Shown here: positions 9,944 through 55,917 of the stretch, one piece after another | How the letters are laid out: every line of letters starts with the position of its first letter | Numbering within the stretch: the stretch's first letter is position 1 | Source of the DNA: Magnetococcus sp. DMHC-6 | GTDB lineage: Bacteria; Pseudomonadota; Magnetococcia; Magnetococcales; JADFZT01 | Direction: 5' to 3' | Length of the DNA: 64,000 bases | Assembly (NCBI GenBank): GCA_039908535.1 | Contig: JAMOAW010000001.1 | Span: 50,259 to 114,258, forward strand | The notes under the pieces: model-generated | What the model saw: only the letters and a program-made list of their open reading frames with translations | Database searches by the model: none | What the model was told of the DNA's origin: nothing | Program-made: the position numbers and the translations under genes

Positions 9944-9945
9944 TA

Positions 9946-10037
9946 TTGTCCCTATCGAAAACCTCATCCGCCCAAAATTTGGCTCAATTTCCAGCATTTT
10001 TGAAGATGGAGAATTAGATTTTGCTGGACTCCGAGGC
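9946..10037 (+). repeat. 92 bp imperfect direct repeat, copy A (partner at 15369-15460)
   Basis: Hand alignment gives roughly 80 percent identity, e.g. CATCCGCCC..AAATTT.GCTC.ATT.CCAGCATTTTTG.AGAT...GAATT.GATTTTGCTGGAC. Confidence 0.7.
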
Positions 10038-10341
10038 AGATTTCCGAGAGAATCAAAAACAATATTGAGGTTTCATTGCTCCAAATAGCCCAAATTTTTC
10101 TAAAGCGGGCAAGGGATATTGGAGCCTCACCTTCTAGATGTGCTCTTTGACAAACTGAAACAGGCCTTGAATCAGGCGGCTTTCCACAGATACGGAATTT
10201 CCACTTCCAGAACAGCCGAAAAGCTTCTCGGTGCCAATGTATCACCATTTCTGGCTTGACGATAACCAAAGATTCACGCCATTCTTTCCAAATGCGGGAT
10301 AGCCAGACCCAAAGTAGACGGTCCAATGAAGGGATGTTCAT
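9964..10341 (-). pseudogene. Transposase/integrase N-terminal fragment (decayed IS remnant)
   Basis: LWVWLSRIWKEWRESLVIVKPEMVIHWHREAFRLFWKWK resembles the N-terminal region of IS-encoded integrase-type transposases. No DDE catalytic domain follows. Confidence 0.5.
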
Positions 10342-10479
10342 GTATCGGAAAAATAAAAAGCAAGACCTTGGGGGGCGGAGAACCGCCCCCCAATACCCCC
10401 CACCCTTCTTTTTTAATTCTTAAAAAAAAGAGGGGGTTTGGGGGATTCATTCCCCAAGGTTTTGATTTTAATTTTTTGC
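10336..10479 (+). repeat. Modular hairpin repeat, 3' arm truncated
   Basis: GTTCATGTATCGGAAAAATAAAAAGCAAGACCTTGGGGGGCGGAGAACCGCCCCCC... Confidence 0.85.
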
Positions 10480-10651
10480 TCAAAGATTTCCATTTGGAGA
10501 GCGAATCGGCTGCGGAACAGGTTGACGCTGAAGAAGTTGATGATGAAAAATGATTTCATGAATGAAATGCCCCTGTGGGTTGATCCTGATCGTTTATTAC
10601 AGACCTTGCTCTCTAATCCAAAGGCCAAGCATTCTATTCGAGGACGTTTAC

Positions 10652-11674
10652 ATGACTCATAATACTCAGAGTCAACCGACAGAGTACGATTCGCCGTGGA
10701 AGGAAATTTTAAAGGCGTATTTTAAGGATTTTTTAGCATTTTTTCTTTCAGAAGCTCATGACGGTATTGATTGGAAGCGTGCCCCTGAGTTCCTGGACAA
10801 GGAGTTGGACCGGATCACGCGGGAGGCAGAGTCCGGTAATCGTCGTGTTGATCTGTTAGTTAAAGTCTGGTTACTCGACGGTGATGAACTTTGGGTGCTG
10901 ATCCATGTTGAAGTCCAAGGGAACAGGGAACCGCATTTTGAAGAGAGGATGTTTACCTGTCAGTATCGGGCATTCGATCTTTACAAGAAGCCTGTGGTCA
11001 GCTTGGCCATCCTCGCTGACGAAGAAGGTACTTGGCGGCCATCGGCATTTGGCTACCAGAAGTGGGGATCAAAGGTTAGTTTCCAGTTCAATGCCTTAAA
11101 ATTGCTGGATTACCTGCCTCAGTTGGATGCTTTGGAGTCATCCACCAATCCGTTTGCCATCGTCACTTTGGTGCATCTGACCGGCAAACAGACCAAAAAC
11201 CAACCGGCAGAACGATTTCAGCAAAAAATGCGCATCACGCGCATGCTGTATGAGCGTGGTTTCAGCCGCCAACAGATCGTTGATCTCTTTCGATTTATCG
11301 ACTGGGTGCTGAGCCTACCGGAAGAGTTAGACAATCAATTCTGGGTAAATCTATCCAACTTCGAGGAGAATAAGAAAATGCCTTATATTACAAGCGTGGA
11401 GCGAATTGGTCATAAGAGAGGTGTAGAAGAAGGAATGCTGGCTGGTATCCAGATCGGCGAACAAAAAGGCATCCAGATTGGCGAACAGAAAGGTCGCCAA
11501 GAAGGTCGCCAGGAAGAAGCCGCTTCCATGCTTCTAAAACAGATACGTCGTAAATTTGGCCAAACACCAGACTGGGTGACGACCAAGGTGACATCGGCAA
11601 ATTTAGAACTTATTGAAGTCTGGAGCGATAACTTTGTGTTCGCTCATTCTGTGGACGAGGTTTTTGCGTCGTGA
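10652..11674 (+). CDS. Rpn-family recombination-promoting nuclease / putative transposase (PD-(D/E)XK) with DUF4351-like C-terminus
   Basis: N-terminus YDSPWKEILKAYFKDFLAFF, then RRVDLLVKV...LIHVEVQ (PD-(D/E)XK-like core). The C-terminal 60 aa are about 85 percent identical to the ORF at 58230-59180. Confidence 0.75.
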   Translation: MTHNTQSQPTEYDSPWKEILKAYFKDFLAFFLSEAHDGIDWKRAPEFLDKELDRITREAESGNRRVDLLVKVWLLDGDELWVLIHVEVQGNREPHFEERMFTCQYRAFDLYKKPVVSLAILADEEGTWRPSAFGYQKWGSKVSFQFNALKLLDYLPQLDALESSTNPFAIVTLVHLTGKQTKNQPAERFQQKMRITRMLYERGFSRQQIVDLFRFIDWVLSLPEELDNQFWVNLSNFEENKKMPYITSVERIGHKRGVEEGMLAGIQIGEQKGIQIGEQKGRQEGRQEEAASMLLKQIRRKFGQTPDWVTTKVTSANLELIEVWSDNFVFAHSVDEVFAS

Positions 11675-11764
11675 ATGACCAACTATGTTGGAGGATGGAT
11701 GAAGTCGTTTTCGATGGATGGGGTGGTGCCCCAACAGCCAATTCGATCTACATTTTTAGAGATG
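11488..11764 (+). repeat. Shared 3' module of the Rpn-like genes (partner 58145-58404, inverted)
   Basis: About 85 percent nucleotide identity across the last 60 or so codons. Patchy identity continues for about 90 bp past the stop (TGAATGACCAACTAT..GATGGATGGGGTGGT..GCCAATTCG..ATTTTTAGAGATG). Confidence 0.7.
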
Positions 11765-12198
11765 ACACCAGAGATTATTTACCACAATTTTTCGGTAACC
11801 GAGTGTACCAAAATTCGAACTTTCTATAAATCAGCCATACCGAGACTTTGCCGAAATTATAATTTTATATTTATTTACAATTATATAAGTTTTTTGCTAT
11901 TTTTTTCGGTTGGTGGAATTTTTAGAGTCGGTCTCGCAAATTTTCGCCAAATGATTCTTTTAAATGGTTTTTTTGGTTTTGTATTTGATTTTTTATTCCA
12001 ACTGTGCGTACAATTTAAAATCTTTTGAAACTAAAAATTTTGCTGTCGGTGAAGTCGAAATAAGAAATGACCTATAGACGACCTATAGACCTGTACGAAA
12101 GTAAGGGGAATTAAGTATGGTATCCCCAGAATTCTCAGTCCAAAATCTGGAAAAAGCGATTAGGTATCGTGTCCCCGGAATTCCCTAGGGGTGTTATT

Positions 12199-12618
12199 AT
12201 GTGTCTGCAATCTGATTTTTTGGATGCTCACGAGCGACACAGGCGTGATGCGGAATTTCTAAACCAAGCCCATCGCTGGGCGAATGCGGACCATCTCTAT
12301 GGCATTGCGGCTGAGTGCGGACTGAAGCACTTAATGATGGTTTTTGGCATGGAGGTCGATTCGTTGGGAAAACCGATAATCAGAGAAGATAGGATGCACG
12401 CTGACGGCATTTGGAAACGCTTCGAGAGTTATCGCTCCGGTTATCGTCAGGGAACAGGATATGCATTGCCTGCCGAGAATCCGTTCCATGATTGGAATAT
12501 TTCCGACCGCTATGCCCATCAATCCAACTTCAATCAGTCACGAACACAATCCCATCAAGCAGGTGTACAGATGGTTTGCGGACTGATCAAGAAAGCGCAG
12601 AAGGATGGGCTGATATGA
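12199..12618 (+). CDS. Small helical hypothetical protein, first gene of the three-gene operon (possibly HEPN-like)
   Basis: The ATG at 12199 lies inside the GTG-started ORF. The stop overlaps the next start (ATGA). The helix pattern FLDAHERHRRDAEFLNQA...YGIAAECGLKHLM recalls HEPN-type four-helix proteins, but I see no clear Rx4-6H motif. Confidence 0.55.
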   Translation: MCLQSDFLDAHERHRRDAEFLNQAHRWANADHLYGIAAECGLKHLMMVFGMEVDSLGKPIIREDRMHADGIWKRFESYRSGYRQGTGYALPAENPFHDWNISDRYAHQSNFNQSRTQSHQAGVQMVCGLIKKAQKDGLI

Positions 12619-13910
12619 CCACCTTCGACCAAATCGTGCCTATAGCCATTGAGGAGCTGAATGCCCATTCCGAACTGGTCGCTCAACTGGAATGGTTGCT
12701 GATCAACCGCGACCTCAACGGACGGGTGCGCTTCATCGTGTCGGACAGCATTCCCGCAAATAATGTGCAACACAAACAAATCAAGGATCTCTACCGATCC
12801 TTGGCTGAACGCATAGCACCTCATGCTTATCCGGTGGATACAGGCATTCTATTTGAGGCAGTGCGCGAGCATGCATACCAAAGTACTGCGGTTTTTGGTT
12901 TGGAGGGATTCGATAACGTATGGGTCATCGACCGTTTGGCAAGCGAATCGCGATGGGAGGCAATTAAAGAGGTTTCTCCCGATGCCCCCCGCATCGTGTT
13001 TTTTTCCATCAAAGGTGGAGTGGGACGATCGACAGCTTTGGCAGCCAGTGCCTGGGCGTTGGCCAAGCAGGGAAAGCGCGTGTTGGTTTTGGATCTGGAT
13101 CTGGAATCGCCGGGACTTTCAAGTGCCTTGTTACCATCTGAACGGCAGCCAAAGTACGGCATCACCGACTGGCTGGTGGAAGACTTGGTCGACAACGGCA
13201 ATGCGCTGATTGAGGATCTCTTTGCGACCAGCGATCTGCCGACGATTGCGGGTCAGATTTATCTCGTACCGGCACACGGCAGTGATCCTGGTGAATATGT
13301 GTCCAAGCTGGGTCGGGTGTGGATGCCGAGAACAAATGGTAGGACACCTCCAGAAGCGTGGTCGTTGCGCCTGAATCGTTTGGTAAATCACCTTGAATTG
13401 CGGATTCGCCCGGACGTGATTCTGATCGATTCTCGCGCAGGCATTGACGAGGTGGCAGCCGCATGCGTGACCGATTTGGGTGCGCACACAGTTTTGATGT
13501 TTGCAATTCAGGGCCAGCAAACCTGGACAGGGTACCGTGCGCTGTTTTCACATTGGCAGCAGCGTGGAGTCATCACTGAAATACGCAATCGCCTGCAGTT
13601 GGTTGCCGGACTCGTTCCGGATGACGAACGCAGGTTAGAATACTTAGCAGCGATTCGAGCAGATTCCTACCAGTTATTCGAGGATACCTACGACGCAGTT
13701 GAGCCGGGCGCAATCAGCGACTGGAGCTTTGAAGAAGTAGATGATAACGCCCCGCACTCTCCTTTGCCGATCCGCTGGAACCGTGGTTGGTATGGTTTGC
13801 TGAGCCTTCAACAACGTATGGTGTCGGTGGATGAGAACGAAGTGAGGGCGGTTTATGGGGGGCTTCTTGATTTTCTGGACCGCGCCCTGGTACAGGAGAA
13901 CCGGACATGA
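12615..13910 (+). CDS. ParA/MinD-superfamily ATPase with variant KGGVGR P-loop and a unique N-terminal domain
   Basis: The deviant Walker A is FFSIKGGVGRST, with Arg in place of the usual P-loop Lys. A' box VLVLDLDLESPG; Walker B DVILIDSRAGID. ATGA overlaps at both ends. Confidence 0.8.
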   Translation: MTTFDQIVPIAIEELNAHSELVAQLEWLLINRDLNGRVRFIVSDSIPANNVQHKQIKDLYRSLAERIAPHAYPVDTGILFEAVREHAYQSTAVFGLEGFDNVWVIDRLASESRWEAIKEVSPDAPRIVFFSIKGGVGRSTALAASAWALAKQGKRVLVLDLDLESPGLSSALLPSERQPKYGITDWLVEDLVDNGNALIEDLFATSDLPTIAGQIYLVPAHGSDPGEYVSKLGRVWMPRTNGRTPPEAWSLRLNRLVNHLELRIRPDVILIDSRAGIDEVAAACVTDLGAHTVLMFAIQGQQTWTGYRALFSHWQQRGVITEIRNRLQLVAGLVPDDERRLEYLAAIRADSYQLFEDTYDAVEPGAISDWSFEEVDDNAPHSPLPIRWNRGWYGLLSLQQRMVSVDENEVRAVYGGLLDFLDRALVQENRT

Positions 13911-15346
13911 CGAATCAGCAGTCTATTCGACAGGCCATTCTGGAGGCACCGTTTGAGTTGGACAACATGGGCGAAATCCCTCACTCTGGCACGCTCTGCA
14001 TTCCTCTTGCTCATCGCAAAGCACTCACTCGTGAAGCTGTACTCGTGATGGGCGCACGCGGAGTCGGCAAGTCGTTCTGGACGGCAGCTTTAAGCGATGA
14101 CGTGCTACGCCGTCAGATTGGTGAATCTGTACAAGAACTGGCTCACACAACAATTTATGTCGGACATGCTGCTAAATCGAGCATTAAGACCTATCCCGAC
14201 CGGGAGACACTCAAGACCCTTCTTGACAGTGGGCACGAACCCTATGTCGTTTGGCGTGCAGTGATGCTGCGGTGGTTGGCAGGAATCACAGGAAAAGAGG
14301 TTCCAACAGACTCCTGGAGTGCCACCGTGCAGTGGGTGACGCAGAATCCTGAGCCATTCGCGCAGATTGCCGAGACTGCCAATGCGCGGATGGCTAACGA
14401 TAATCAGTTTGGTCTCATCATTTTCGATGCCCTTGATCGCACGAGTCAAGACTGGAACACGATGAATCATATCGTGCGTGATTTGTTACGAATAACCTTG
14501 TGGTTGCGTGATTTTTCTCGACTACGTGCCAAAATCTTCTTGCGTCCAGATCAAATGGAGCGGACGGTCACTTCGTTTGTTGATGCGTCGAAAATCTTGG
14601 CTACACGCGCCGAGCTTACCTGGGAGCGACATGATTTGCACGCCATGCTGTGGAAGCGCCTCATCAATGCTACTGATCCGCATGGGAACTGCCTGCGTTC
14701 GGTAATGACGTCCATTCTGCCTTCCAGTGACGCATTACGTTCTGAAAACTCTATTTGGTTTTTGCCATCAGCATTAACTTCAGAGGCACCATACCAGCGC
14801 CGTTTATTTGAGGCACTCGCCGGGGATAAGATGGGCAAAGATGCTCGCCGAGGTGTGCCCTATGTGTGGAGTGTCAGTCATCTGGCAGATGGTCATGGTT
14901 GGACTTCGCCACGTTCTTTCCTTGCGGCTATCTCTGGTGCTGCGGAAGACAGCGTTCAGCGCTACGTTGATTATCCTTTGGCGCTGCATTATGAAAGTCT
15001 CAAACGTGGTATCCAGAAGGCGTCCAAAATCCGCGTTGCCCAAGTGGCGGAAGATGATCCTTGGGTGCCACAGGTCATGCAAGCACTAAGAGGGATAAAC
15101 GTCCCTTGTGATTACAAAGCGGTTAATTCCGCTTGGGAAAGCACATTTCCTGATGGGCCAAGCAGTATTCGATCAGATCACTTGCCCCCTCAGCATGTTG
15201 AAAGCTGGGACGGTGTGCGAAAAGATCTGGAACGCCTCGGAATTTTTGTGACCCGCAAAGACGGTCGCATTGACATGCCCGACCTCTATCGCGTTGGGTT
15301 TGGTTTGGGTCGCAGGGGAGGTGTGGCACCCAGGAAGTCAACATGA
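13907..15346 (+). CDS. P-loop NTPase (479 aa) with a long uncharacterised C-terminal region
   Basis: Walker A VLVMGARGVGKSFW, Walker B LIIFDALDR, followed by KIFLRPD. It is translationally coupled to the upstream gene. Confidence 0.8.
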   Translation: MTNQQSIRQAILEAPFELDNMGEIPHSGTLCIPLAHRKALTREAVLVMGARGVGKSFWTAALSDDVLRRQIGESVQELAHTTIYVGHAAKSSIKTYPDRETLKTLLDSGHEPYVVWRAVMLRWLAGITGKEVPTDSWSATVQWVTQNPEPFAQIAETANARMANDNQFGLIIFDALDRTSQDWNTMNHIVRDLLRITLWLRDFSRLRAKIFLRPDQMERTVTSFVDASKILATRAELTWERHDLHAMLWKRLINATDPHGNCLRSVMTSILPSSDALRSENSIWFLPSALTSEAPYQRRLFEALAGDKMGKDARRGVPYVWSVSHLADGHGWTSPRSFLAAISGAAEDSVQRYVDYPLALHYESLKRGIQKASKIRVAQVAEDDPWVPQVMQALRGINVPCDYKAVNSAWESTFPDGPSSIRSDHLPPQHVESWDGVRKDLERLGIFVTRKDGRIDMPDLYRVGFGLGRRGGVAPRKST

Positions 15347-15368
15347 TGAATATTCAAAAGGCCATTGG

Positions 15369-15460
15369 TTGTCCATACTGAAAATTCCATCCGCCCCAAA
15401 TTTAGCTCGATTCCCAGCATTTTTGGAGATAGGGAATTCGATTTTGCTGGACACCGAAGA
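15369..15460 (+). repeat. 92 bp imperfect direct repeat, copy B (partner at 9946-10037)
   Basis: See copy A. It lies 23 bp after the operon stop and directly abuts the repeat element at 15467. Confidence 0.7.
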
Positions 15461-15466
15461 ATATTT

Positions 15467-15625
15467 ATGTATCGGAAAAATAAAAATCAAGACCTTGGGG
15501 GGGGGGAGAACCGCCCCCCAATCCCCCCACCCTTTTCTTTTAATACTTAAAAAAAAGAGGGGGTCTGGGGGATTCATCCCCCAGGGTTTTGATTTTAACT
15601 TTTTTGCCCGCAGGGCACCATGTTC
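15467..15625 (+). repeat. Modular hairpin repeat, full-length
   Basis: Differs at about three positions from the copy at 47972-48129. Confidence 0.9.
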
Positions 15626-16439
15626 AAATTTTCTTTACCTGAGCCATTTTGTGCCTTTGCCAAAATCAAAAATTCTTATTTATTTACAATAATATACAAT
15701 TTTCATCGAGTATTACCGAAAACGAACTGTCGACATTGGAAAGAGAAAACAAGATATTCGTCGTAGTATATTGAAATAATTGTTAAAATTTATGGATACA
15801 GAAATATTAAAATGCAGAATTGGCGGCAAAACAGGGCCAATTGAGCGTGGGACGGCGATTCTCCTTATTTTTCGGTTGACCGAGAAATCATGTATCAATT
15901 CTTAAAAAAACGCATTCATGTTCATAGAAATTGTGTCTGCATTGAATCTGGAAATCTATTTCTTGCACAAGAAGGCTTCTTTGCATACCTTGTCAGTCAG
16001 AATGGTCCCCATTGGCCACCAGTCGTGGTACGTTTGCGTTTTGTGGTTCGGGTTATTAGCCTTGTACTGGAATTTTGCACGAGGAACGGAATTGGCTTGA
16101 TTTTTTTTGTTTGGACTGAGCGGCTTGGCGGATGGAGCTGAATGGTCGTAGAAGAGGAAAAAATCAGGAAGCTTGCAAGATAACTTGAAAAAAATCGGGG
16201 ACGAATTCATTATGAAACCGACTGTGAGGATGGTTATCCGATTTAGATTTGTCTGTCACACTTGGATGAAACGATCTGGGACGTGGTGGGTGAAAGAGTC
16301 CGGCACCAGTATGCTCAGGGTTTGATACACAGTGGCCAATGGGGGCTAAAAGCGGGTTTTCAACCATTATGTAGCGCAGTCACGCCAGCCTTGTTTAAGG
16401 CTCGTTGGCAAATAGGAAATGCTCCTAGCGGAGGTATTT

Positions 16440-17462
16440 ATGCTTGGATTTCGTTTTATCAAGACTCAGCCTACTCAGTATGTCATAGAATTTCATCGTG
16501 GAAAACCACGTCGTGAGGGAGCAGGACTCTCCCTGTTTTATTTCGCCCCTTTTGTCTCTGTTGTTGTAGTTCCCACTGGAAGTGTCAATTTTCCCTTTAT
16601 ATTCGAGCAGACAACTTCTGATTTTCAAGAAGTTACCCTTCAGGGGCAAATTACCTACCGCATCACTGATCCTAAAAAAATTGCCGTCCTTTTAGATTTT
16701 TCCATTAATCACCAAGGTCGTCATATCTCTGATGACCCTCAAAAACTTTCTCAGCGTCTGATTGATCAAGCGCGAGTGGCCTTGATCTCTGAAGTGGGGG
16801 CTATGACTCTGAAAGAGGCATTGGCCCAGAGCAACCGTTTGGTTACCCGGGTTGTAGAGACGTTGCGGAACGAATCATCTGTCGTTGCTTTAGGAGTCGA
16901 GATTCTCGGTTTTTTTATCCTAGCGATCAAACCGAATCCAGAAACGGCTCGAGCTTTGGAAGCAGAAATGCGGGAAGATCTGCTGCGTTGCGCTGATGAA
17001 GCGATCTATACCCGACGCAACGCTGCCGTTGAACAGGAACGAATCATTCGTCAAAACGAACTGGATACCGAAATTGCTGTGGAAAACAAGCGTCGCCAAG
17101 TTCGAGAGGTTCAAATGGAGGCCGACCGTTCGATTCGTGAAAAACAGCGGGTAATTGCTCATGAGGAAATGAAAGGTAATATTTTTTTAGAGGAATTGCG
17201 TCACCAATGGATGGAACTCTCATCTGTGAATGCAAGACAAAAATCTGATGACCATGCCTATGCCATTGACGTCGTGTTGAAGGCTTTTAAGGGGAGTGAT
17301 TCAAAGGTGTTGCAGGCCCTCGCTAGCGTTGGAATGAATCCTGGTCAGTTGATGGCCGTGGCATTTCGTGAAATGGCTGAAAATGCTTCAAAAATTGGTC
17401 AACTTAATATTTCTTCTGAATTGCTTAGTGAGATTATGGGATCTCTGGAGATCAAAAAATAG
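16440..17462 (+). CDS. SPFH/band-7 (prohibitin/flotillin-like) domain protein
   Basis: GGAGG sits 5 nt before the ATG at 16440. SPFH-like core (QEVTLQGQITYRITDP...), then a coiled-coil EA-rich segment (ARALEAEMRE...ERIIRQNELDTEIAVENKRR). Confidence 0.8.
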   Translation: MLGFRFIKTQPTQYVIEFHRGKPRREGAGLSLFYFAPFVSVVVVPTGSVNFPFIFEQTTSDFQEVTLQGQITYRITDPKKIAVLLDFSINHQGRHISDDPQKLSQRLIDQARVALISEVGAMTLKEALAQSNRLVTRVVETLRNESSVVALGVEILGFFILAIKPNPETARALEAEMREDLLRCADEAIYTRRNAAVEQERIIRQNELDTEIAVENKRRQVREVQMEADRSIREKQRVIAHEEMKGNIFLEELRHQWMELSSVNARQKSDDHAYAIDVVLKAFKGSDSKVLQALASVGMNPGQLMAVAFREMAENASKIGQLNISSELLSEIMGSLEIKK

Positions 17463-17463
17463 C

Positions 17464-18417
17464 ATGGTCGACCCATACTTTAGAAAGATTGTCCTGGTGG
17501 TCCGTACTACTCGTTTGGATGAGTTGATTGCACGTTTTAATACCTTGGATCAAGCACGTTTCTATGTTGAGCATTTAGGAGCTGATTTTTCAGATTATTT
17601 GGCTGAACATCGGAATTACCAGGAGGCAGTTGTAAAAATAAGTGCGTTTTTAAAAGAATTTGGCATTTTGCAATATTTAGATCGTCGTTTTTTGCCAAAT
17701 TTTATTTTTGGTTCTGACGATAGAGTGGTTGTTTTAGGGCAGGATGGACTTGTAGCAAATACTTTAAAATACCTCGAAGGACAAAGAGTAATAGGGGTGA
17801 ATCCAGATCCTTCTCGTTGGGATGGAGCTCTACTTCCGTTCACAATTGGCGATATTTTGCGCATTTTTCCAGAGGAAATGGCTAACAAAAGACCAGTTAA
17901 GGAGGTCAGTATGGCCTGGGCTAAACTAAACACCGGACAGGAGTTGTTGGCGGTTAATGATTTTTTTATTGGGAAAAAGTCTCATACATCGGCTCGTTAT
18001 TTATTGGATACTGGAGAGCAGCAGGAGTCACAATCTTCTAGTGGGGTGATCATTTCCACCGGACTTGGCTCGACAGGTTGGCTGAAGAGTATTTATGCAG
18101 GATGGAAGGCAACGACTCAGGTTTTATTAGGGGACAATGCCGAGGAACTTCTTCTTGAACCTGTTGATAAAGGAGCTTTTCCATGGGAGTCTGAACACTT
18201 GCATTGGTATGTGCGAGAACCTTTCCCCAGCCAAACGACGGGAACCGGGTTAGTGATTGGACGGATCGAAAAAGGCAAAAATTTACGTTTGATTTCGCAG
18301 ATGGCGGAAGATGGAGTCATTTTCAGCGATGGCATCGAAGAAGATTACATTTCCTTTAATAGCGGCACGGAGGTAATCATCTCTTTGGCTAGAAAACGAG
18401 GATATTTGGTGGTTTAA
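17464..18417 (+). CDS. NAD kinase-family (ATP-NAD/diacylglycerol-kinase fold) protein, divergent
   Basis: VVVLGQDGLVAN corresponds to the GGDGT motif, VIGVNPDP to the GIN motif, and SSGVIISTGLGSTGW to the DG-STPTGSTAY motif. The start is 1 nt after the SPFH stop. Confidence 0.75.
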   Translation: MVDPYFRKIVLVVRTTRLDELIARFNTLDQARFYVEHLGADFSDYLAEHRNYQEAVVKISAFLKEFGILQYLDRRFLPNFIFGSDDRVVVLGQDGLVANTLKYLEGQRVIGVNPDPSRWDGALLPFTIGDILRIFPEEMANKRPVKEVSMAWAKLNTGQELLAVNDFFIGKKSHTSARYLLDTGEQQESQSSSGVIISTGLGSTGWLKSIYAGWKATTQVLLGDNAEELLLEPVDKGAFPWESEHLHWYVREPFPSQTTGTGLVIGRIEKGKNLRLISQMAEDGVIFSDGIEEDYISFNSGTEVIISLARKRGYLVV

Positions 18418-18633
18418 ATTTTGATTTTTTTTTGGTGATCAATCTGAATAGAATGAATTGTAACTGCATTCAGCATGAGATGTGGGGTTTGTCATTCCCG
18501 CGAAAATGGCAATCTACTTTTTGAAGGGAGCTATCAGGATTACCAATTTTGCGGGAATAATGCTTGGAAAAGAGTCTCAAATTGGTTTCTGTTCAATATA
18601 TTATTATGTATTATTTTATTATCTTCTGAGCAT

Positions 18634-19698
18634 ATGACAATAAATAATCAAAAAGCCATTCGGGGAGCCTTGTTGGGTACGGCTTTGGGGGATGCGGTCG
18701 GACTTGTCACAGAGGGTTTATCTCGTCGTCGATTGGCGCGTCTTTACCCTGGTCCATTGGGACCAGCATTATGGTTTCGATTTGGGATGATGTCAGATGA
18801 TGGTGAACATGCATGTATGACAGCGCAGGCACTAATTGTGGCATCTGGAGACACACAGCGTTTTATCCATAGTCTGGCTTGGCGGTTACGGTTTTGGCTG
18901 TTGGGGTTCCCTGCTGGAGTTGGATTGGCAACAGGTCGTGCCATATTAAAGCTCTGGATTGGATTTTCGCCTCATAAAAGCGGTGTTTTTTCTGCTGGTA
19001 ATGGTCCAGCAATGCGAGCTCCAATCATTGGTGCTGCTTGGAGCGATCATTTGGCAACTATGAAAAAAATGGTCGTTGCTTCCACCCGTTTGACCCATAC
19101 AGATCCCAAGGCAGAGTGGGGAGCCTTGGCTGTTGCATTGGCTGCAGCGTTTTCTGCTCGGGGTGAGAGGGTAACTCCACAACAATTTGTGCAAGAATTG
19201 ACATCTCTATTGGATAAATCAGCAGTTGAATTTGTGAGTCTCATAGAACAAACCGTTGCGAGTCTCCTTAAGGGTGAAACGGCCTTTCAATTTGCCGACA
19301 ACCTTGGACTTTCTACAGGAATTGGTGGATATGTATTTCATACGGTTCCTATTGTGCTGCATATTTGGATGCGTTCTCCAGCTTCCTTTGAGGATGCTTT
19401 AAATGAAGTGATTCGTTTAGGAGGGGATACCGATACAACAGCAGCGATATTGGGTGGTATTTTGGGAGCCGGAATGGACTTGGAAGAGTTTCCAAAACAT
19501 TGGGTATTACGTTTAGTAGATTGGCCTCGTTCTAGACACTGGATGATTTCTTTAGCGGATCGCTTGGCGCGAGTTCATCAAACGGGAATTCCTATGAATG
19601 CGCTTCCTTTGTTTTGGCCCTTATTGCCTTTACGCAATTTGGTATTTTTGACTGTGGTACTTTTACATGGTGTCCGTCGTCTATTCCCGCCTTGGTAG
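18634..19698 (+). CDS. ADP-ribosylglycohydrolase family protein with a hydrophobic C-terminal tail
   Basis: N-terminal GALLGTALGDAVG and C-terminal GGDTDTTAAILGGILGA metal-site motifs. The tail is PLFWPLLPLRNLVFLTVVLLHG. Confidence 0.8.
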   Translation: MTINNQKAIRGALLGTALGDAVGLVTEGLSRRRLARLYPGPLGPALWFRFGMMSDDGEHACMTAQALIVASGDTQRFIHSLAWRLRFWLLGFPAGVGLATGRAILKLWIGFSPHKSGVFSAGNGPAMRAPIIGAAWSDHLATMKKMVVASTRLTHTDPKAEWGALAVALAAAFSARGERVTPQQFVQELTSLLDKSAVEFVSLIEQTVASLLKGETAFQFADNLGLSTGIGGYVFHTVPIVLHIWMRSPASFEDALNEVIRLGGDTDTTAAILGGILGAGMDLEEFPKHWVLRLVDWPRSRHWMISLADRLARVHQTGIPMNALPLFWPLLPLRNLVFLTVVLLHGVRRLFPPW

Positions 19699-19980
19699 AT
19701 TTTTTGTAAGCGATCACGGGGTGTGAATGCAATTTACCCGCCTTGACACGATTAATGCAACAATGATAATGACTTTCCGGAAAAGCAACCCTTTTTTTCA
19801 CAACGGATCGTCATGGTAATCCATTCATCCTCTGACGCAACCAAATGGCTCGACAAGTTTCCCTTTTCGAAAGATGACTGGGAGAGATCCTCAACGCCTT
19901 GTTGAAGTGGACCCCGTTGTCAAGACAATTTTTAAACATCCATAAGCTCTTATACCCAAGTTCTTTCTATTCATGGCATC

Positions 19981-20949
19981 TCATGTCCGCCACTTACCAT
20001 CCACAAATCCTCCTCGTCCCCCCTCCTGATAACCACTGGAACCATGATGAACAAGTTTGCGACCCTGTTTCTTAACCCGATCAAAGTTAATCTTTTCGGC
20101 ATAACCAAGAAAAGAGAGTTCGCTCCCAGGGAAAAAAGGCACCCCTTGCCCAGAACCATGAAAACCCGGCGGGGAGTCTCCCAATACCGATGTCCACCAT
20201 GATTTATCATAAAACAGAGAGACCACATGAATAGACCACGGTTCATGTGAATAAAAACGCGCCCCTTCGTGAAGTTTTGGCCACAAATATTGCAAACAAT
20301 CACGCACCGAACTGGCTAAATCGGCATCTTCAAAGACCATGACCACATCTTCAGTGGGAATGGTCGGCAAACTATCCTGAAAATACCCCGCCACAAAATG
20401 ACAAACCTCTATCTCCCCCAAAGTTTGTATCACCTGCCGAACGCCCTGCTGACCACCTACGCTGGTAAACTCTCCTTTTTCCCAAATATAGTAAAAATCT
20501 TGATCATGGGAATAGATTTCGTGGCTTTCACCCTCTTCTGGTTCAGGCAACCCGGCAAAAGAGTCACAGATAAACAAACGTCGACCCACCAAAGCACAAA
20601 CAATAGAAAGGCTGGCAGAACTGGCCCCTTGATAACAACCACACTCCACCACATCACCTATCCAATCTTTTGGAATACCAAGAATGGTATCAACAAGTTT
20701 TAAATGTTGTTTCCAATGGGAACCAGAACGAACCCGATAGGAATTATTGATGATACGACGCGCCAAACGCCATTTTTGCCAATACCCAACCCCATACTCT
20801 TTGCCACTCGATCTACCCACAAAACGCAAAACAAAAGGGAGATCCGGCAACTCCCGTATCCGTCGAATCACAGGACGCAAGAGCGGTTTAATCCATTTTA
20901 AAAAGAAATTTTGCATAAATTCCACCAAATCAAAAAACGATATCGCCAA
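19981..20949 (-). CDS. TylF/macrocin-O-methyltransferase-like class I SAM methyltransferase
   Basis: VVECGCYQGASSASL...LFICDSFAGLPEP matches the TylF-family layout. Confidence 0.7.
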   Translation of the reverse strand: MAISFFDLVEFMQNFFLKWIKPLLRPVIRRIRELPDLPFVLRFVGRSSGKEYGVGYWQKWRLARRIINNSYRVRSGSHWKQHLKLVDTILGIPKDWIGDVVECGCYQGASSASLSIVCALVGRRLFICDSFAGLPEPEEGESHEIYSHDQDFYYIWEKGEFTSVGGQQGVRQVIQTLGEIEVCHFVAGYFQDSLPTIPTEDVVMVFEDADLASSVRDCLQYLWPKLHEGARFYSHEPWSIHVVSLFYDKSWWTSVLGDSPPGFHGSGQGVPFFPGSELSFLGYAEKINFDRVKKQGRKLVHHGSSGYQEGGRGGFVDGKWRT

Positions 20950-22015
20950 AATAGCCGCTTAAACAACTCTCCCCACTCCCCATAACAAAAGTGATCCCTT
21001 TTGGAAATCGACAATAAATGGCAGATGGTCGGGTTCTTTGGATAGACCATCCGCTCAAAAGAGCAGCCTGTTTAAACAAAGCGTTATATTCAGGAACAAT
21101 AACCATGGCAAACCGATTTTGTTCACTATAATCAATAGCTGCCTGAATAAGGGCGACAAAAGTCCAAGGCGTGCGCTCCAGGCTCCAGATATCCAAACAA
21201 ACAAAATGAATGGTATCAAAAGGCAAACTCACCGGAAACTGCGCAAAAAGAGCATATCCCGTCAAAATATTTTTGGCATCATAACACCCAAACAAAACCA
21301 AGTTACGGATCGGATTGGCATAAACGAGCCATTGCAGATCCAAGGAAGTACGCCGCTGACTGAAGGTAAAATAATCCGCTGTCCTTTGCCATAAACGGTC
21401 GAATTCCTCTCCCACATGATCCAGCAGTTGAACCTGTAAACCGTTTTTATTGCGACGGGTACCGCTAAATCCCATTCTTACGACTTTGTGCCACCATCGG
21501 ATCGTCCAAGAGAGTCCATACGCCAAAAATTTAGGAATTTTTTTCTTTCGCAACTGCCAAGCCAAAAACTCTGTATTTGTAACAAAAAGATATTCGCATA
21601 ACGTGTCGGCTAAATTACAAAAACGAAAACTTCGTAGGATAGCCGCCACATCCAAAGTAGGCGTGGTATTGAAGACAAGCCGATCTTTTGCATGGGTAAG
21701 CGCCTTTGAGAGAAGTCGCAAACTCTCCCCCTGATACGCCTCTTGAACCCGCCAAGTAGAAAAATTACTCACCAAAACCTGCTGACCAAAAAGCTGAACA
21801 GAACTGGGAATATCAGCCAGCATTCCAACAATCGTTGTCTCCTCCAAAAGCATCCAACCCCGAATCCAATGCGCCGAAAAAACGGGATTCTTTTCCCACC
21901 AAAAAAGAAAACGCTCTTCCCACAAGGATGCCTGGTAAATATCTCCAGGAAAGTTGGCACAAAACACCGCCAAGGCCGGATAATCCGCAGCCTGGATGGG
22001 AAGCAACTGAATCAT
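20930..22015 (-). CDS. Hypothetical protein, possibly a GNAT-fold acyltransferase
   Basis: A long ORF in an operon with the ACP, ligase and SDR genes. The N-terminal region is weakly GNAT-like. The call is tentative. Confidence 0.45.
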   Translation of the reverse strand: MIQLLPIQAADYPALAVFCANFPGDIYQASLWEERFLFWWEKNPVFSAHWIRGWMLLEETTIVGMLADIPSSVQLFGQQVLVSNFSTWRVQEAYQGESLRLLSKALTHAKDRLVFNTTPTLDVAAILRSFRFCNLADTLCEYLFVTNTEFLAWQLRKKKIPKFLAYGLSWTIRWWHKVVRMGFSGTRRNKNGLQVQLLDHVGEEFDRLWQRTADYFTFSQRRTSLDLQWLVYANPIRNLVLFGCYDAKNILTGYALFAQFPVSLPFDTIHFVCLDIWSLERTPWTFVALIQAAIDYSEQNRFAMVIVPEYNALFKQAALLSGWSIQRTRPSAIYCRFPKGITFVMGSGESCLSGYFGDIVF

Positions 22016-22020
22016 TTGCT

Positions 22021-23325
22021 TCAGCTTTGTTTAAAACGATGATTAAAAGGAACAGAACCAATGCAAAAACGATGCGGCCTCTTTTCTTCAGGAAGACGTT
22101 CAGCCAAAAAGGCGCGTAATTGCTCCCGTGTCAAGGTTATGTTGGGCCGAGGTTCGCAAGTTATTTCAATAAATTGACCCGTGATCGGATTGTTCACCCC
22201 TTTGACCTTGGCCCGCAATACCCCAGGATGGGTCAGAGCGACCTCTTCCAACTCAGCCGGAAGAACTTTTATGCCACCCATGTTGATCACATCCCCTGTC
22301 CGTCCAAGGATACGCAAATAGGAACCCTTTTGCTCCACAAGGTCTCCAGTATGATACCACCCTTCGCCATCAAAAGGAGAAGGAGCATTCAGATAACCCA
22401 ACATTCTGTTTTCAGCCTTAATCTTCAGAATACCCTCTTCTACCTTGACCAAAACCCCTTCCCCACCAATCTGCATCCATAGACTCTCCCGACTTTCTGA
22501 TTTAACACGCAAAATGCTCAACTCTGACATCCCATAGGTTTGCCGAAAATCCACTTGCGGCAGGAGTTTGCCCAAGCTTTGCAGGGTATATGGATCCATC
22601 CGTTCGGTGCCATACGTAATGACTTTTAAAGAAGGGGGCGGAGGAGAGTGTTCCAACAAACCACTCAAAAAAAGCAGACGCAAAAAGGTGGGACTGGTAG
22701 GGAGAAGTTCCGCATCAAACGCCTTAATGGTGTCCAATACCTGATCGGGACGACGTCCTGAGGGAATGATCAAACAGCCACGATTAAAAAGGGTATGAAA
22801 TAAGGTATTGATACCACCAATATGATCAAACATTAAAAAAGAAATGGTGCGTAAAGTGGGACGTTTGGTTCGATAACGTTCCAAAAAAAAGTTAAAATCG
22901 TGCAAAATGGCCTTTGGACGACCGGTGGTCCCCGTGGAAAAAAGAATTAACCCGGGATGATGTCTAGCCCGCAGAGTCTCTAAAAAAGGGTGCTCTTTTT
23001 GTTGAAGACGTAGCCTCTGGGCCTGATCTTTCTCCACAACCCAATCCACACCAGCCGCTTCAAAAAAATAGTCGTGCTGCTGACGTGTCTCCGGTGTGAG
23101 AGGAACCACGACCCCACCCCTATCGACCACCTCAATCAATTGTTTAATGGCTTGAGGAGAAAAATCACCGATGACAGCCACCACATCTCCAGGAGAAATC
23201 TCTGCCACTGCGGGCAATCCAGGTGCGGCTTCCAAGTTTGTAAATCGAAGCTCAAACTCTGGACCGATCAAAAAAGGATCGGTAAATCCACGATAACGGT
23301 CCGCCAATTCTGTTAGCAGATGCAT
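22021..23325 (-). CDS. AMP-dependent synthetase/ligase (acyl-CoA or acyl-ACP ligase)
   Basis: AMP-binding motif ILFSTGTTGRPKAILH, YGMSE, TGDL and GGIKV motifs. Confidence 0.85.
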   Translation of the reverse strand: MHLLTELADRYRGFTDPFLIGPEFELRFTNLEAAPGLPAVAEISPGDVVAVIGDFSPQAIKQLIEVVDRGGVVVPLTPETRQQHDYFFEAAGVDWVVEKDQAQRLRLQQKEHPFLETLRARHHPGLILFSTGTTGRPKAILHDFNFFLERYRTKRPTLRTISFLMFDHIGGINTLFHTLFNRGCLIIPSGRRPDQVLDTIKAFDAELLPTSPTFLRLLFLSGLLEHSPPPPSLKVITYGTERMDPYTLQSLGKLLPQVDFRQTYGMSELSILRVKSESRESLWMQIGGEGVLVKVEEGILKIKAENRMLGYLNAPSPFDGEGWYHTGDLVEQKGSYLRILGRTGDVINMGGIKVLPAELEEVALTHPGVLRAKVKGVNNPITGQFIEITCEPRPNITLTREQLRAFLAERLPEEKRPHRFCIGSVPFNHRFKQS

Positions 23326-23379
23326 CTGTTCACCTCCCTTACAATTTGTATGAGGAGCATATCGATCAGAGGCAAAGGG

Positions 23380-24066
23380 TTACACCCCTCCTAAATGAAT
23401 AATTTCACCGCTGATCATGGCGGCCTCTTCGGAAAGAAGCCATTTTACCGTTTGATACACATCTTCTGGAATCGCTTTACGAGAGATCACCTGTTGATTG
23501 ACCACCTCTTGGATACGTTCACTGGAAACCTTGGCAATAAGATCGGTATCAATAGGACCGGGGGCAAGGACATTAACCGTTGTGCCATGCTCAGCCATCT
23601 CGCGGGCAAAGGTACGGGAAAAGCTCTCCACACCCGCTTTAGAGGCGGCATAAACCGCCTCTCCTTTAAGTGCCAAATGAACAGCAATGGTGGAAAAATT
23701 AATAATCCGTCCCTGTTTCTGGCGAGCCAACAACCAACCGACCATTTGCGAACAATAAATCGTCCCCAAAAGATTAACAGCCACAAGGCGTTCAATGGTT
23801 TGTGTCGGCATGAGAAGCGTTAAATTCATAGAGGCGATTCCCGCCGCATTAATCAGTCCATAAAGAGTTTTCTCTCTCTTAAATGAACTCATCACCTGCT
23901 TGACCGCAGCGGGATCAGACACATCACAAAGACGAATTTCAAACGACGCCTCAGGAAGAGTATGACGGGCCAAACCAATGACCCGATAACCATCTTCGGT
24001 AGCCCGTTGCGCTAAATGGTATCCCAGACCACGTGAGGCCCCTGTAATCAGAAGGGTTTTGTTCAT
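23380..24066 (-). CDS. Short-chain dehydrogenase/reductase (FabG-like)
   Basis: TGASRGLG cofactor motif, NAAG, and the YAASKAG catalytic motif. Confidence 0.9.
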   Translation of the reverse strand: MNKTLLITGASRGLGYHLAQRATEDGYRVIGLARHTLPEASFEIRLCDVSDPAAVKQVMSSFKREKTLYGLINAAGIASMNLTLLMPTQTIERLVAVNLLGTIYCSQMVGWLLARQKQGRIINFSTIAVHLALKGEAVYAASKAGVESFSRTFAREMAEHGTTVNVLAPGPIDTDLIAKVSSERIQEVVNQQVISRKAIPEDVYQTVKWLLSEEAAMISGEIIHLGGV

Positions 24067-24353
24067 CTGCCTTCAGTCAATTGAACAATATACGCCACAA
24101 GCGTCTCTAATGTTCTGTATACACTACGATTTTCAGATAAGGCACTATCCGAGGTCCAATCAAAAGTCACCGACAAAGTTTCATCACAAAATTCTTCAAC
24201 AGCGACCAATAACTCAACCAGTTGCCTGGATTTAAATGGGGAATCACGACCAATGAGAGGGGTATCTAAAGTGACAATCAATGGAGATGCCAATAATCCC
24301 TGCGCAATGGACAAAATATGTTGTTCGCACTGCTCTCTGATAGGGGTACCCAT
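24063..24353 (-). CDS. Acyl carrier protein-like
   Basis: LIGRDSPFKSRQLVELLVAVEEF resembles the phosphopantetheine attachment Ser context. 4 nt overlap with the SDR gene. Confidence 0.65.
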   Translation of the reverse strand: MGTPIREQCEQHILSIAQGLLASPLIVTLDTPLIGRDSPFKSRQLVELLVAVEEFCDETLSVTFDWTSDSALSENRSVYRTLETLVAYIVQLTEGR

Positions 24354-24393: not shown

Positions 24394-25758
24394 TCAATAG
24401 TCAAATTGCGGCAAAGAAGGAAATGCCGCATTTTTACGCTGTGTGAACCGAATACCACTGGCCCGATAGGTGCCATTACGGCCTGGTAAAACTTCAAATT
24501 CAATGGTATCACCAGGCAATGGGGTGATCTCTGGCTCAATAAATTCAGAGACATGCAGATAAATATTATTGCGCCGACACTTGGCAAACCCATACCCTTT
24601 TTCGGAAAAATAGGCGGTAATCACGGCATTTTCTAGGCTACCAATCACCAAATTATCCCCAGAACCCACATGACTGCTGGGCGTCTCTCCTTCAAAAGGG
24701 ATCACCTGCGAGGCGGTAAGACCTTCCATGTCTGAACCTGAGTTGACCGTAAATTCAACGATATCGTTGATACTGATATATTTTCCATGAATCTCTTGAG
24801 GAATCATATAAAATTTTAACAGTTCGGAATCGTTGTTACGAATCGAAATAAATCCCCCAATGAAAGGATCTATGGATTCCACTTGACCTTGCAATCGACC
24901 TCCCATCACCAAAACGGAACAGGCTTGTGGACGTCCACCCTTGCCGGGTTTAATCACAAACTGGACATCGTCATGTTCATGGATGGGAGGTTGCGTCAAG
25001 ACGTAGGTCATATGAAAATAAATTTCTTTGTATTCATTATTTTCATTATAATATTGGATAAACCCAAATCCCCTCTCCTCTTTAAAGGCCGATACCTTAC
25101 CAAAATAGACCATTTTTTCGGACTGCCCATCCTGGTCACTCTCACCTGGGGCTTCCATACTGGTGCGCGCCAAATATTCTGGACAGTGAGCTTGCCAAAA
25201 AATGGAATATATTTCAATTGGTTTGGCGATAGCTTCCAGTCGGCGCGGCGGTTCTTCCAAAAAATAATCACGCGTCGAACGACGACATTTTTTCCCAGCG
25301 ACCGATTGAATATCCGCCTCTGTGATATACTCAATCCCATCCCGTTGCACAATGATCGCATTCCCACGGGCCAAATCACACAGTTGCCGGGCAACCTCGA
25401 CAGTGAAGCCAAACAAATCCGTAAGACCTTGACCAAGATCGGATTCGTACACAACTCCAGTGGCAATACCAACTTTACAGCTCACGACACCCTGCTCTGA
25501 AGAGGCCTCCTTTTCCGCCTGGATTCGGTCTTGCAAAGTGATAGCGGCTTGAATCGCGGATTCCGGCAAGGCAAACGAAGCCATGATTTGCCAACCAAAG
25601 GGACGAACAAATTGAACCCCATGCCCCTGAAAACTCTCTATCGCCAAGAGGATAAAATGTCTGAATATTTCAATCCACTCAATCTCAGGGTGATTTTTTT
25701 GATATTGAGTGACATTAAAAATTTTCGCAAAAAGGATGGTCTTCTCTGTTTTTTTCAT
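24394..25758 (-). CDS. Cyclase-homology-like N-terminal domain fused to three cold-shock/OB-like domains
   Basis: N-terminal ILFAKIFNVT, where class III cyclases have ILFADI.GFT. Then YFGKVSAFKEERGFGFIQY, LQGQVESIDPFIGGFISI and ITAYFSEKGYGFAKC, which are CSD-like. Confidence 0.6.
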   Translation of the reverse strand: MKKTEKTILFAKIFNVTQYQKNHPEIEWIEIFRHFILLAIESFQGHGVQFVRPFGWQIMASFALPESAIQAAITLQDRIQAEKEASSEQGVVSCKVGIATGVVYESDLGQGLTDLFGFTVEVARQLCDLARGNAIIVQRDGIEYITEADIQSVAGKKCRRSTRDYFLEEPPRRLEAIAKPIEIYSIFWQAHCPEYLARTSMEAPGESDQDGQSEKMVYFGKVSAFKEERGFGFIQYYNENNEYKEIYFHMTYVLTQPPIHEHDDVQFVIKPGKGGRPQACSVLVMGGRLQGQVESIDPFIGGFISIRNNDSELLKFYMIPQEIHGKYISINDIVEFTVNSGSDMEGLTASQVIPFEGETPSSHVGSGDNLVIGSLENAVITAYFSEKGYGFAKCRRNNIYLHVSEFIEPEITPLPGDTIEFEVLPGRNGTYRASGIRFTQRKNAAFPSLPQFDY

Positions 25759-26444: not shown

Positions 26445-26602
26445 GAACATGATGCCCTACGGGCAAAAAATTAAAATCAAAAACAAAACCTTGGGGGATG
26501 AATCCCCCAAACCCCCTCTTTTTTTTAAGTATTAAAAAAAAGAGGGGATTGGGGGGCGGTTCTGGGCCCCCCAAGGTCTTGATTTTTATTTTTCCGATAC
26601 AT
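26445..26602 (-). repeat. Modular hairpin repeat, full-length, inverted
   Basis: Starts GAACATGATGCCCTACGGGCAAAAAA and ends TTTTTCCGATACAT. Confidence 0.9.
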
Positions 26603-47971: not shown

Positions 47972-48129
47972 ATGTATCGGAAAAATAAAAATCAAGACCT
48001 TGGGGGGCGGAGAACCGCCCCCCAATCCCCCCACCCTTTTCTTTTAATACTTAAAAAAAAGAGGGGGTCTTGGGGATTCATCCCCCAGGGTTTTGATTTT
48101 GACTTTTTTGCCCGCAGGGCACCATGTTC
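47972..48129 (+). repeat. Modular hairpin repeat, full-length (used here as the reference copy)
   Basis: ATGTATCGGAAAAATAAAAATCAAGACCTTGGGGGGCGGAGAACCGCCCCCCAATCCCCCCACCCTTTTCTTTTAATACTTAAAAAAAAGAGGGGGTCTTGGGGATTCATCCCCCAGGGTTTTGATTTTGACTTTTTTGCCCGCAGGGCACCATGTTC. Confidence 0.9.
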
Positions 48130-55913: not shown

Positions 55914-55917
55914 AAGG

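Follow-up and report, generated by a model that had tools for sequence, protein, structure and literature searches.

A gene encoding an SPFH/Band-7 protein and a gene encoding a protein with a nicotinamide adenine dinucleotide (NAD) kinase fold lie one nucleotide apart in a 64,000-nt stretch of the Magnetococcus sp. DMHC-6 genome (contig JAMOAW010000001.1, positions 50,259 to 114,258; hereafter the window, in whose numbering coordinates are given unless another locus is named), and together form a translationally coupled two-gene operon that occurs in many bacterial phyla. The SPFH gene (16440–17462, 340 amino acids (aa)) and the kinase gene (17464–18417, 317 aa) are followed on the same, forward strand, after a 216-nt spacer (18418–18633), by a gene for an ADP-ribosylglycohydrolase (ARH) of the DraG/ARH3 superfamily (18634–19698, 354 aa). 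An earlier note, made from the sequence of the window, had suggested that these three genes might form one functional module. All three proteins have database entries at 100% identity from a MAG (metagenome-assembled genome) of Magnetococcus sp. DMHC-6. Open reading frame (ORF) calls and alignments agree with the positions and motifs it gave for them, and the sequence bears out its single-nucleotide SPFH–kinase junction (TAG C ATG) and its 216-nt gap. The conserved unit proved, however, to be the SPFH–kinase pair and not the trio: ARH is weakly linked, as only 5 of 53 loci have it next after the kinase gene and in the two nearest relatives it lies away from the pair. We lean, with slightly more confidence than doubt, towards reading the kinase as an accessory NADK2/NADK3-like NAD(H) kinase that is controlled or scaffolded by a soluble, cage-type SPFH oligomer and serves NAD homeostasis. 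This reading builds on the linkage and coupling of the two genes, on the kinase fold with its conserved catalytic and NAD-contacting residues, and on the recurrent company of the regulator NrtR and of NAD salvage genes.

Conservation of the SPFH–kinase pair

Related loci comprised 80 metagenome loci, fetched with the kinase family alignment, together with loci from genomes, plasmids and metagenome-assembled genomes (MAGs). The metagenome loci were taken as the 80 best among over 534 matches, mostly at 54–66% identity, and percentages drawn from them describe that slice only. Loci were annotated by our own ORF calling and phmmer searches, and neighbouring ORFs were clustered and confirmed against Pfam. 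The linkage that had been proposed from the single Magnetococcus locus recurs throughout: among loci with at least 300 nt of upstream sequence, the SPFH gene lies directly upstream of the kinase gene and on the same strand in 72 of 74. The distance between SPFH stop and kinase start falls within ±20 nt in 57 of the 67 loci in which it could be measured, with a mode of −4 (an ATGA overlap) and with values of −1 to +4 also common, a pattern which argues for translational coupling of the two genes. In the window the junction reads AAA TAG C ATG GTC, with 1 nt between stop and start.

The pair is present in Magnetococcales, in Alphaproteobacteria including Rhizobium chromids (42 plasmid records), in Gammaproteobacteria and Spirochaetota, and, at lower identity, in Bacteroidota (43%) and Actinomycetota (33%). 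The two proteins diverge in step, with SPFH/kinase identities of 77/79%, 72/72% and 64/62% to the same three genomes. Carriage on plasmids is seen in several genera, on dispensable plasmids of Rhizobium, Acinetobacter and Treponema. We found no description of an SPFH–kinase pair in the full-text literature searched, and no paper there that mentions both NrtR and SPFH; as far as the searchable literature shows, the operon of SPFH and NADK2-like genes, its linkage to NrtR and the operator described below are undescribed, while their components are of known kinds.

Some plasmid copies of the locus have further features of their own. On the Acinetobacter lwoffii plasmid pALWED1.1 (locus L094, 4094–8841) the kinase gene directly adjoins, at its 3' end, a tetR(H)-tet(H) module for tetracycline resistance, giving the order nrtR-like Nudix gene, disrupted SPFH gene, kinase gene, tetR(H)-tet(H). 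A truncated 3' fragment of the kinase gene also stands beside tetR(H) on the Actinobacillus pleuropneumoniae plasmid p405tetH (L097, 428–2797), and small plasmids of Psychrobacter, Mannheimia and Wohlfahrtiimonas carry partial kinase matches; the fragment may be a relic of the site at which tet(H) was captured. In Rhizobium, the pair is followed by a gene for a 194-aa P-loop kinase-like protein (L093, R. etli plasmid pRetIE4771d, 8031–8615), which has only weak Pfam matches to AAA_18 and chloramphenicol-phosphotransferase-like families and might be a further small-molecule kinase of the locus.

An NADK2-like kinase and an anchor-less SPFH protein

The kinase carries the motifs GQDG, IGVNPDP and GVIISTGLGSTGW. 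GQDG and the Gly-rich motif STGLGSTGW are kept in all nine aligned homologues from Pseudomonadota, the Bacteroidota homologue has GRDG and STGAGSSGW in their place, and NPD is invariant in 10 of 10 aligned homologues. The description of this protein as a divergent NAD kinase was right as to fold and understated as to distance, as the kinase has no Pfam match even at E ≤ 10, PF01513 and PF20143 included, and reaches only about 15 bits (E ~2e-3) against the NCBIfam NAD-kinase models, the best score being 17.6 against a cut-off of 211 and all cut-offs lying above 200. A phmmer search of all sequences in the PDB returned a single match, human mitochondrial NADK2 (E 9e-7). With a 37-sequence profile of the kinase family NADK2 was again first (1.8e-11), yeast POS5 was next (0.054), and no canonical bacterial NAD-kinase chain in the PDB was matched at E ≤ 1.

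An AlphaFold2 model of the kinase (predicted local distance difference test (pLDDT) 85.6, predicted template-modelling (TM) score 0.81) has the two-domain NAD-kinase fold, and every one of its top 50 Foldseek matches in the PDB is an NAD kinase, the NADK2 entries coming first (E ~4e-19, TM-score 0.66–0.71). Residues were mapped to NADK2 by HMMER alignment, with the roles of NADK2 residues taken from PMC9245612 and PMC3535332. The catalytic NADK2 Asp161 corresponds to D94, the NE/D motif to N165-D166, Ser306 to S193 and Trp319, which stacks on the nicotinamide, to W206, and these residues (D94, N165, D166, S193 and W206) are invariant in alignments of the kinase family, as are T199, G200, G202, S203 and G205 of the Gly-rich motif. 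Lys76, near the diphosphate, corresponds to R14, and Lys317 to T204, a position that differs from NADK2 and is itself nearly invariant.

In the NADK2 (C5orf33)–NADK3 clade, Ser, Thr/Lys and Trp replace Asp189, Thr200 and Tyr202 of Ppnk, and motif 1 reads PX-GXN(T/S)DP (PMC3535332). The kinase agrees with the clade at S193, T204 and W206, and its GVNPDP resembles motif 1 (GxN(T/S)DP) except that Pro stands where Thr or Ser would be expected. Because NADK2 is the best match by both HMMER and Foldseek and the key residues are kept, we assign the kinase to the NAD-kinase fold, with the modelled structure and the alignments placing it closer to the NADK2/NADK3 lineage than to the housekeeping NadK. 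The likeness to human NADK2 and plant NADK3 extends to the two-domain fold, the catalytic Asp, the NE/D and GxNxDP motifs, the Ser and Trp that replace canonical Asp and Tyr, and an N-terminal 'TTR' helix region that aligns (PMC3535332). It is a likeness of sequence and fold, and the kinase differs in being only ~18–20% identical, in having GQDG, in lacking a mitochondrial targeting sequence and an equivalent of His191, and in being encoded beside an SPFH gene. Canonical NadK/PpnK proteins (PF01513 plus PF20143) share its fold and catalytic logic; unlike them, the kinase falls outside both Pfam models, has an extra predicted helix (residues 205–229) straight after the Gly-rich motif, and belongs to a family that coexists with canonical nadK. 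This family is large (at least 8000 sequences in a word-indexed search; among 50%-identity cluster representatives, 1969 homologues at E ≤ 1e-3 and 263 at E ≤ 1e-30), yet goes unrecognised by the Pfam and NCBIfam models, and its members are annotated as 'sugar kinase' or 'hypothetical'.

Its partner matches Pfam Band_7 (E 2.9e-17) and has 6767 homologues in our searches; a sequence search of the PDB gave no match. In the AlphaFold2 model (pLDDT 78) an SPFH domain (residues ~1–165) leads into a single helix of ~115 residues (167–282) and a small, helical, poorly predicted C-terminal region, and Foldseek aligned the model with HflK/C, stomatin, erlin, prohibitin, flotillin and QmcA as well as with the major vault protein (E 1e-10 to 1e-7). 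The protein begins directly with the SPFH β-strands and has no N-terminal transmembrane segment, its hydrophobic windows (26–49 and 145–166) being core β-strands only. It thus shares the SPFH domain and very long helix of the cage-forming SPFH proteins (HflK/C, QmcA-YbbJ, stomatin, prohibitin, flotillin, erlin) and of the soluble major vault protein. Unlike the cage-forming proteins, it lacks an N-terminal transmembrane or hairpin anchor and an NfeD- or FtsH-type partner: no NfeD-like family was found among the recurrent neighbour clusters of SPFH–kinase loci, and its conserved partner is a soluble kinase (72 of 74 loci). Hinderhofer et al. 2009 (PMC2636767) distinguished two small 'soluble' prokaryotic SPFH subfamilies, SPFH8 and SPFH9, with no documented members, to which this protein may belong.

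The earlier note had suggested that a hydrophobic C-terminal tail could anchor the ARH to the membrane, where SPFH proteins assemble. The missing SPFH anchor runs counter to this, as does the tail itself, which is a hydrophobic and basic extension, has the form RN..FL..VL.HG.RRL.PP(Y/W) and is conserved in 12 of 12 sequences of its ARH subfamily, with R334, N335, F338, H345 and R349 invariant and an ending in PP(Y/W). As the invariant residues include polar ones (Arg, Asn, His, Arg), the tail does not look like a simple membrane anchor. The tailed subfamily spans cyanobacteria, Methylomirabilales and Desulfobacteraceae among others, whatever the gene neighbourhood, and the tail is a subfamily feature independent of SPFH.

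NAD metabolism around the pair and the place of ARH

The families that recur around the pair are NrtR (a Nudix domain with an NrtR_WHD winged helix), ARH and a PncA-like protein of the isochorismatase family, together with PncB, NadV, NADAR and canonical NAD kinase. Of the 44 loci with sufficient sequence, 19 have the NrtR gene immediately 5' of the pair, and 22 of 35 loci have one or more NAD-related families within 7 kb (NADAR in three). In Marinigracilibium the order is nrtR, a Nudix protein gene, nadV, a small ORF, SPFH and kinase, all on one strand. Eleven divergent nrtR/SPFH promoters contain a strongly conserved double palindrome, CTTAGTGTAAA-N4-CAACTAACTTAGTTGACA-N4-ACACTAAGT, each unit of which corresponds in size and symmetry to published NrtR operators; these are palindromes of ~21 bp from which NrtR lets go when ADP-ribose binds (PMC2330246). 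The double palindrome is therefore a putative operator at which NrtR may bind, and as ADP-ribose releases NrtR from DNA, an operon so controlled would be expected to be induced during NAD breakdown. With nrtR, the palindrome, pncA, pncB, nadV, NADAR, nadK and ARH genes at or within 7 kb of the pair, the suggestion that the locus is centred on NAD and ADP-ribose gains support from loci other than the one on which it was based.

The resemblance to NrtR regulons (Rodionov et al. 2008, PMC2330246) lies, in the related loci, in the adjacent nrtR, in the palindromic operator in the shared promoter and in co-location with pncA/B, nadV, nadM and draG-like genes; the SPFH–kinase operon is not among the targets given in that paper, and the window differs in having neither NrtR nor the operator. 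A canonical nadK lies in the same neighbourhood as the pair at three loci (L050, L055 and L087). Because of this, and because the pair is carried on plasmids and chromids, some of them dispensable, the kinase family is not the housekeeping NadK; the concern that the kinase might be the sole NAD kinase of its genome is thus answered at other loci. The housekeeping nadD, which the earlier note had placed well away from the cluster, is plausible at 55918–56574, where a cytidylyltransferase-like protein is encoded within a proA-nadD-rsfS-rlmH cluster (54979–57851, reverse strand).

A protein of ~460–740 aa in which a ~230-aa N-terminal region without a Pfam match is joined to a SAM-dependent methyltransferase is encoded in 5 of 35 of the NAD-type neighbourhoods (L050, 44–1723, reverse; L055, 3181–4794, reverse; L012, 520–2736, reverse; L002, 2–1381, forward; L078, 8184–10256, forward). 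It may be an uncharacterised NAD- or nicotinamide-related enzyme.

The ARH of the window matches ADP_ribosyl_GH (PF03747, E 3.9e-54), has a start at 18634 consistent with its homologues, and has both metal-site motifs, GDAVG and GGDTDTTAA, intact as had been claimed; GDAxG, SDD and GGDTD are invariant in its subfamily alignment, and with them G19, D20, G263, G264, D265 and D267. Its nearest structures are those of MJ1187 and DraG. It differs from DraG in scoring far under the TIGR02662 DraG equivalog cut-off (88.6 bits, E 4e-25, against 337) and in having no partner DraT, or other ADP-ribosyltransferase, among the adjacent genes scanned.

Somewhat short of an even chance, in our judgement, is the alternative that this ARH became a mere neighbour of the pair by rearrangement and acts independently, for example by reversing ADP-ribosylation of endogenous or foreign proteins, a view compatible with any of the other readings discussed here. 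Its orthologues in other Magnetococcales (MAGs and Magnetococcus YQC-5; 69% identity) stand elsewhere, either with a Peptidase_M78 gene as neighbour or flanked by a 184-aa gene and a gene for a UvrD helicase, while in these relatives the pair is followed by katG (a Magnetococcales MAG) or has no ARH in the 750 nt left to the contig end (YQC-5). The Magnetococcales loci share no flanking synteny beyond the genes themselves, and the 216-nt gap contrasts with the 1-nt SPFH–kinase junction. Against chance proximity, at least two ARH subfamilies recur beside the pair in independent arrangements: L048, L050 and L065 have nrtR-SPFH-kinase-ARH operons in which the downstream ARH is of a different, tail-less subfamily, L031 has an orthologue of the window ARH (E 2e-95) immediately upstream of the SPFH gene, and in L004 and L055 an ARH gene adjoins nrtR. 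An ARH within 7 kb in 6 of 35 loci is also far above the <1% expected for 0–3 copies per genome, an expectation that was estimated and not computed. ARH is accordingly a facultative companion of the pair, and the evidence weakly favours its membership of the module in a minority of genomes.

Proposed mechanism, alternatives and genomic surroundings

If the kinase is an accessory NAD(H) kinase, it would phosphorylate the adenosine 2'-OH of NAD+ or NADH to yield NADP(H) in addition to the product of the housekeeping NadK, and the SPFH oligomer, made in roughly stoichiometric amounts, would bind, stabilise or gate it. In many bacteria the operon would be repressed by NrtR and induced as ADP-ribose accumulates through NAD consumption; it would then be switched on together with NAD salvage genes, rebuilding or rebalancing the NAD(P)(H) pools. 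In the Magnetococcus genome, ARH could act on modified proteins or small molecules to free ADP-ribose, which would then enter ADP-ribose/NAD recycling.

Several points weigh against this reading. Both the substrate of the kinase and a physical SPFH–kinase complex are predictions. GGDG is replaced by GQDG (GRDG in Bacteroidota), albeit with the catalytic Asp retained, and the position of NADK2 His191, which stacks on adenine, is not conserved but is Ala or Val (residue 122) in the kinase family, so that substrate or phosphoryl donor could differ from NAD and ATP. A six-frame search of the whole 64-kb window found no homologue of NrtR, and none of canonical NadK, PncA, PncB, NadV or NADAR; the alphaproteobacterial palindrome CTTAGT-N-ACTAAG is absent from the window at ≤1 mismatch, with the region 5' of the SPFH gene giving matches at three mismatches only. 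Control by NrtR is presumed from the related loci, and any role of the ARH in this genome is likewise a presumption.

The change to GQDG and the loss of the adenine-stacking His also speak for an alternative that we regard as unlikely, namely that the kinase acts on an NAD-derived nucleotide, converting ADP-ribose to ADP-ribose-2'-phosphate or phosphorylating nicotinic acid adenine dinucleotide or a cyclic ADP-ribose isomer, and that it forms with ARH, NADAR and NrtR a system of ADP-ribose processing or detoxification on an SPFH scaffold. The co-occurrence of the kinase with NAD genes, at times with canonical nadK, argues against simple redundancy, and enzymes that release ADP-ribose recur nearby (ARH in 6 of 35 loci, NADAR in 3 of 35). 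Systems centred on an ADP-ribosylglycohydrolase (ARG) and equipped with Nudix transcription factors are, moreover, predicted to process released ADP-ribose further (PMC9503650). On the other side, the invariant nicotinamide-stacking W206 and the NE/D motif fit a nicotinamide dinucleotide (PMC9245612), the two characterised relatives considered here, human NADK2 and plant NADK3, both phosphorylate NAD(H) (PMC3535332), and most loci have no ARH.

A bolder version of the accessory NAD(H) kinase reading, which we hold to be rather improbable, would have a vault- or HflK/C-like SPFH cage enclose or gate the NADK2-type kinase as an ADP-ribose-inducible, compartmentalised route to NADP(H), and would place the clade, among prokaryotes, as the source of mitochondrial NADK2 and of plant NADK3 or as their sister group. 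SPFH proteins would in that case acquire a new class of client, a cytosolic metabolic enzyme in place of a membrane protease or channel. The kinase clade is abundant in Alphaproteobacteria and Magnetococcales.

NADP in bacteria is held to come from a single NadK, in textbooks and in recent papers (e.g. PMC9245612), and should the accessory NAD(H) kinase reading be right, a second, widespread, NrtR-linked NAD-kinase paralogue would change the view of NADP(H) supply under NAD-consuming stress. Rhizobium etli and R. phaseoli would offer a genetically tractable case of an anchor-less SPFH protein with a defined soluble enzyme partner, and the family would supply a concrete candidate among bacteria for the still unresolved ancestry of mitochondrial NADK2.

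A role in conflict had been put forward as plausible in the earlier note; that the three genes act as a module of phage defence or counter-defence, interfering with NAD or ADP-ribose signalling at the membrane, now appears very unlikely. The genes do adjoin the cassette that the note described as acquired: 12169–15346 on the forward strand is a complete three-gene PADLOC candidate system, PDC-M28 A/B/C (E 6e-53, 5e-174 and 8e-198), and another candidate, HEC-01, lies at 1201–2939. NAD and ADP-ribose are, besides, widely used by defence systems, and an anti-phage role has been proposed for ARG-centred systems that include a Nudix transcription factor (PMC9503650). These Nudix/WYL-regulated systems, described by the Aravind group in 2022 as a predicted counter to viral ADP-ribosylation, resemble the present loci in having ARH without a partner ADP-ribosyltransferase and, in L048, L050 and L065, a Nudix-type transcription factor in the same operon. 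They differ in that the ARG is accompanied by phosphatases, chaperones and nucleases; the paper makes no mention of SPFH or of an NADK-like kinase, and the window has no such transcription factor.

The adjacency to PDC-M28 is specific to this genome, and the two are of different composition: the three genes have a GC content of 0.42–0.46 (~0.44), which is typical of the window, whereas GC rises to 0.52–0.545 at 13–15 kb, because of which the cassette was probably acquired horizontally. None of the three proteins has a PADLOC match, and no homologue of the kinase was found in 50,697 phage records. Elsewhere the neighbours of the pair are not rich in defence genes: among 100 neighbours at 16 other loci, each of the 25 PADLOC families listed at E ≤ 1e-10 matched one protein, and since these were DpdF/PsyrT-type helicase models plus AbiEii, the matches are consistent with only a few proteins, the L003 helicase with a RecQ domain probably being among them. 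As a rule the pair is found among NAD salvage genes, and its SPFH protein is without a membrane anchor; in sequence the pair is highly conserved, at 60–65% identity between Magnetococcales and Alphaproteobacteria, and is not fast-evolving. On present evidence the SPFH–kinase pair should not be counted as a defence system. The idea of a lipid kinase of the diacylglycerol- or sphingosine-kinase type working in SPFH-organised membrane microdomains, to which the GGDG superfamily shared by NAD, diacylglycerol and sphingosine kinases and the usual membrane role of SPFH proteins might point, is scarcely credible given that the top 50 structural matches consist of NAD kinases and include no lipid kinase, that the NADK-specific C-terminal Gly-rich motif is present, that the context is NAD metabolism and that neither protein has a membrane segment.

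The leader or promoter region 5' of the SPFH gene (15704–16439) is non-coding, with no convincing ORF. It is poorly conserved relative to two Magnetococcales relatives, and aligning the three loci gave no common motif. Rfam has no family in the leader, the only matches within 9800–20200 lying at 15493–15618 and far below the gathering score, and a consensus scan for promoters and terminators gave counts no higher than in shuffled sequence, with no forward-strand site in the 216-nt kinase–ARH gap.

Direct repeats flanking PDC-M28 were considered as scars of cassette insertion and rejected, as they are members of a family of hairpin repeats scattered over the window. This intergenic repeat resembles repetitive extragenic palindromes or miniature inverted-repeat transposable elements (REP/MITE-like); its arms are ~25 nt long (CCCCAAGGTYTTGATTTTWATTTTT), are often paired ~78 nt apart and have 14 matches in the window against 0 expected, with copies for example at 10349–10476, 15476–15603, 26472–26593 and 47981–48107. 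Larger copies at 9946–10477 and 15369–15703 flank the PDC-M28 region. Between the repeat copies and PDC-M28, 10562–11674 (forward) encodes a 370-aa protein with a DUF4351 C-terminus, suspected to be Rpn-type recombination-nuclease- or transposase-like, and a short ORF beside it (9964–10341, reverse) resembles an N-terminal fragment of an integrase or transposase. HEC-01 (1201–2939, forward), the second defence candidate of the same 16-kb stretch, lies ~13 kb from the SPFH–kinase pair and comprises an AAA_21/AAA_15 ATPase and a DUF4276 protein (E 8e-201 and 5e-74).

On the other side of the locus, 24394–25758 (reverse) encodes a 454-aa protein of unusual architecture, with an N-terminal adenylate/guanylate-cyclase-like domain followed by cold-shock (CSD) domains and with a weak PADLOC match to CSD_V. 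Immediately downstream of ARH and convergent with it, a cluster at 19981–24353 (reverse) contains, in window order, genes for a TylF-type O-methyltransferase, a 361-aa protein that Pfam does not match, an AMP-binding enzyme and a short-chain dehydrogenase, and then a small ORF of 96 aa. By its content it resembles a cluster for the modification of small molecules or lipids, with no apparent tie to the SPFH–kinase locus.

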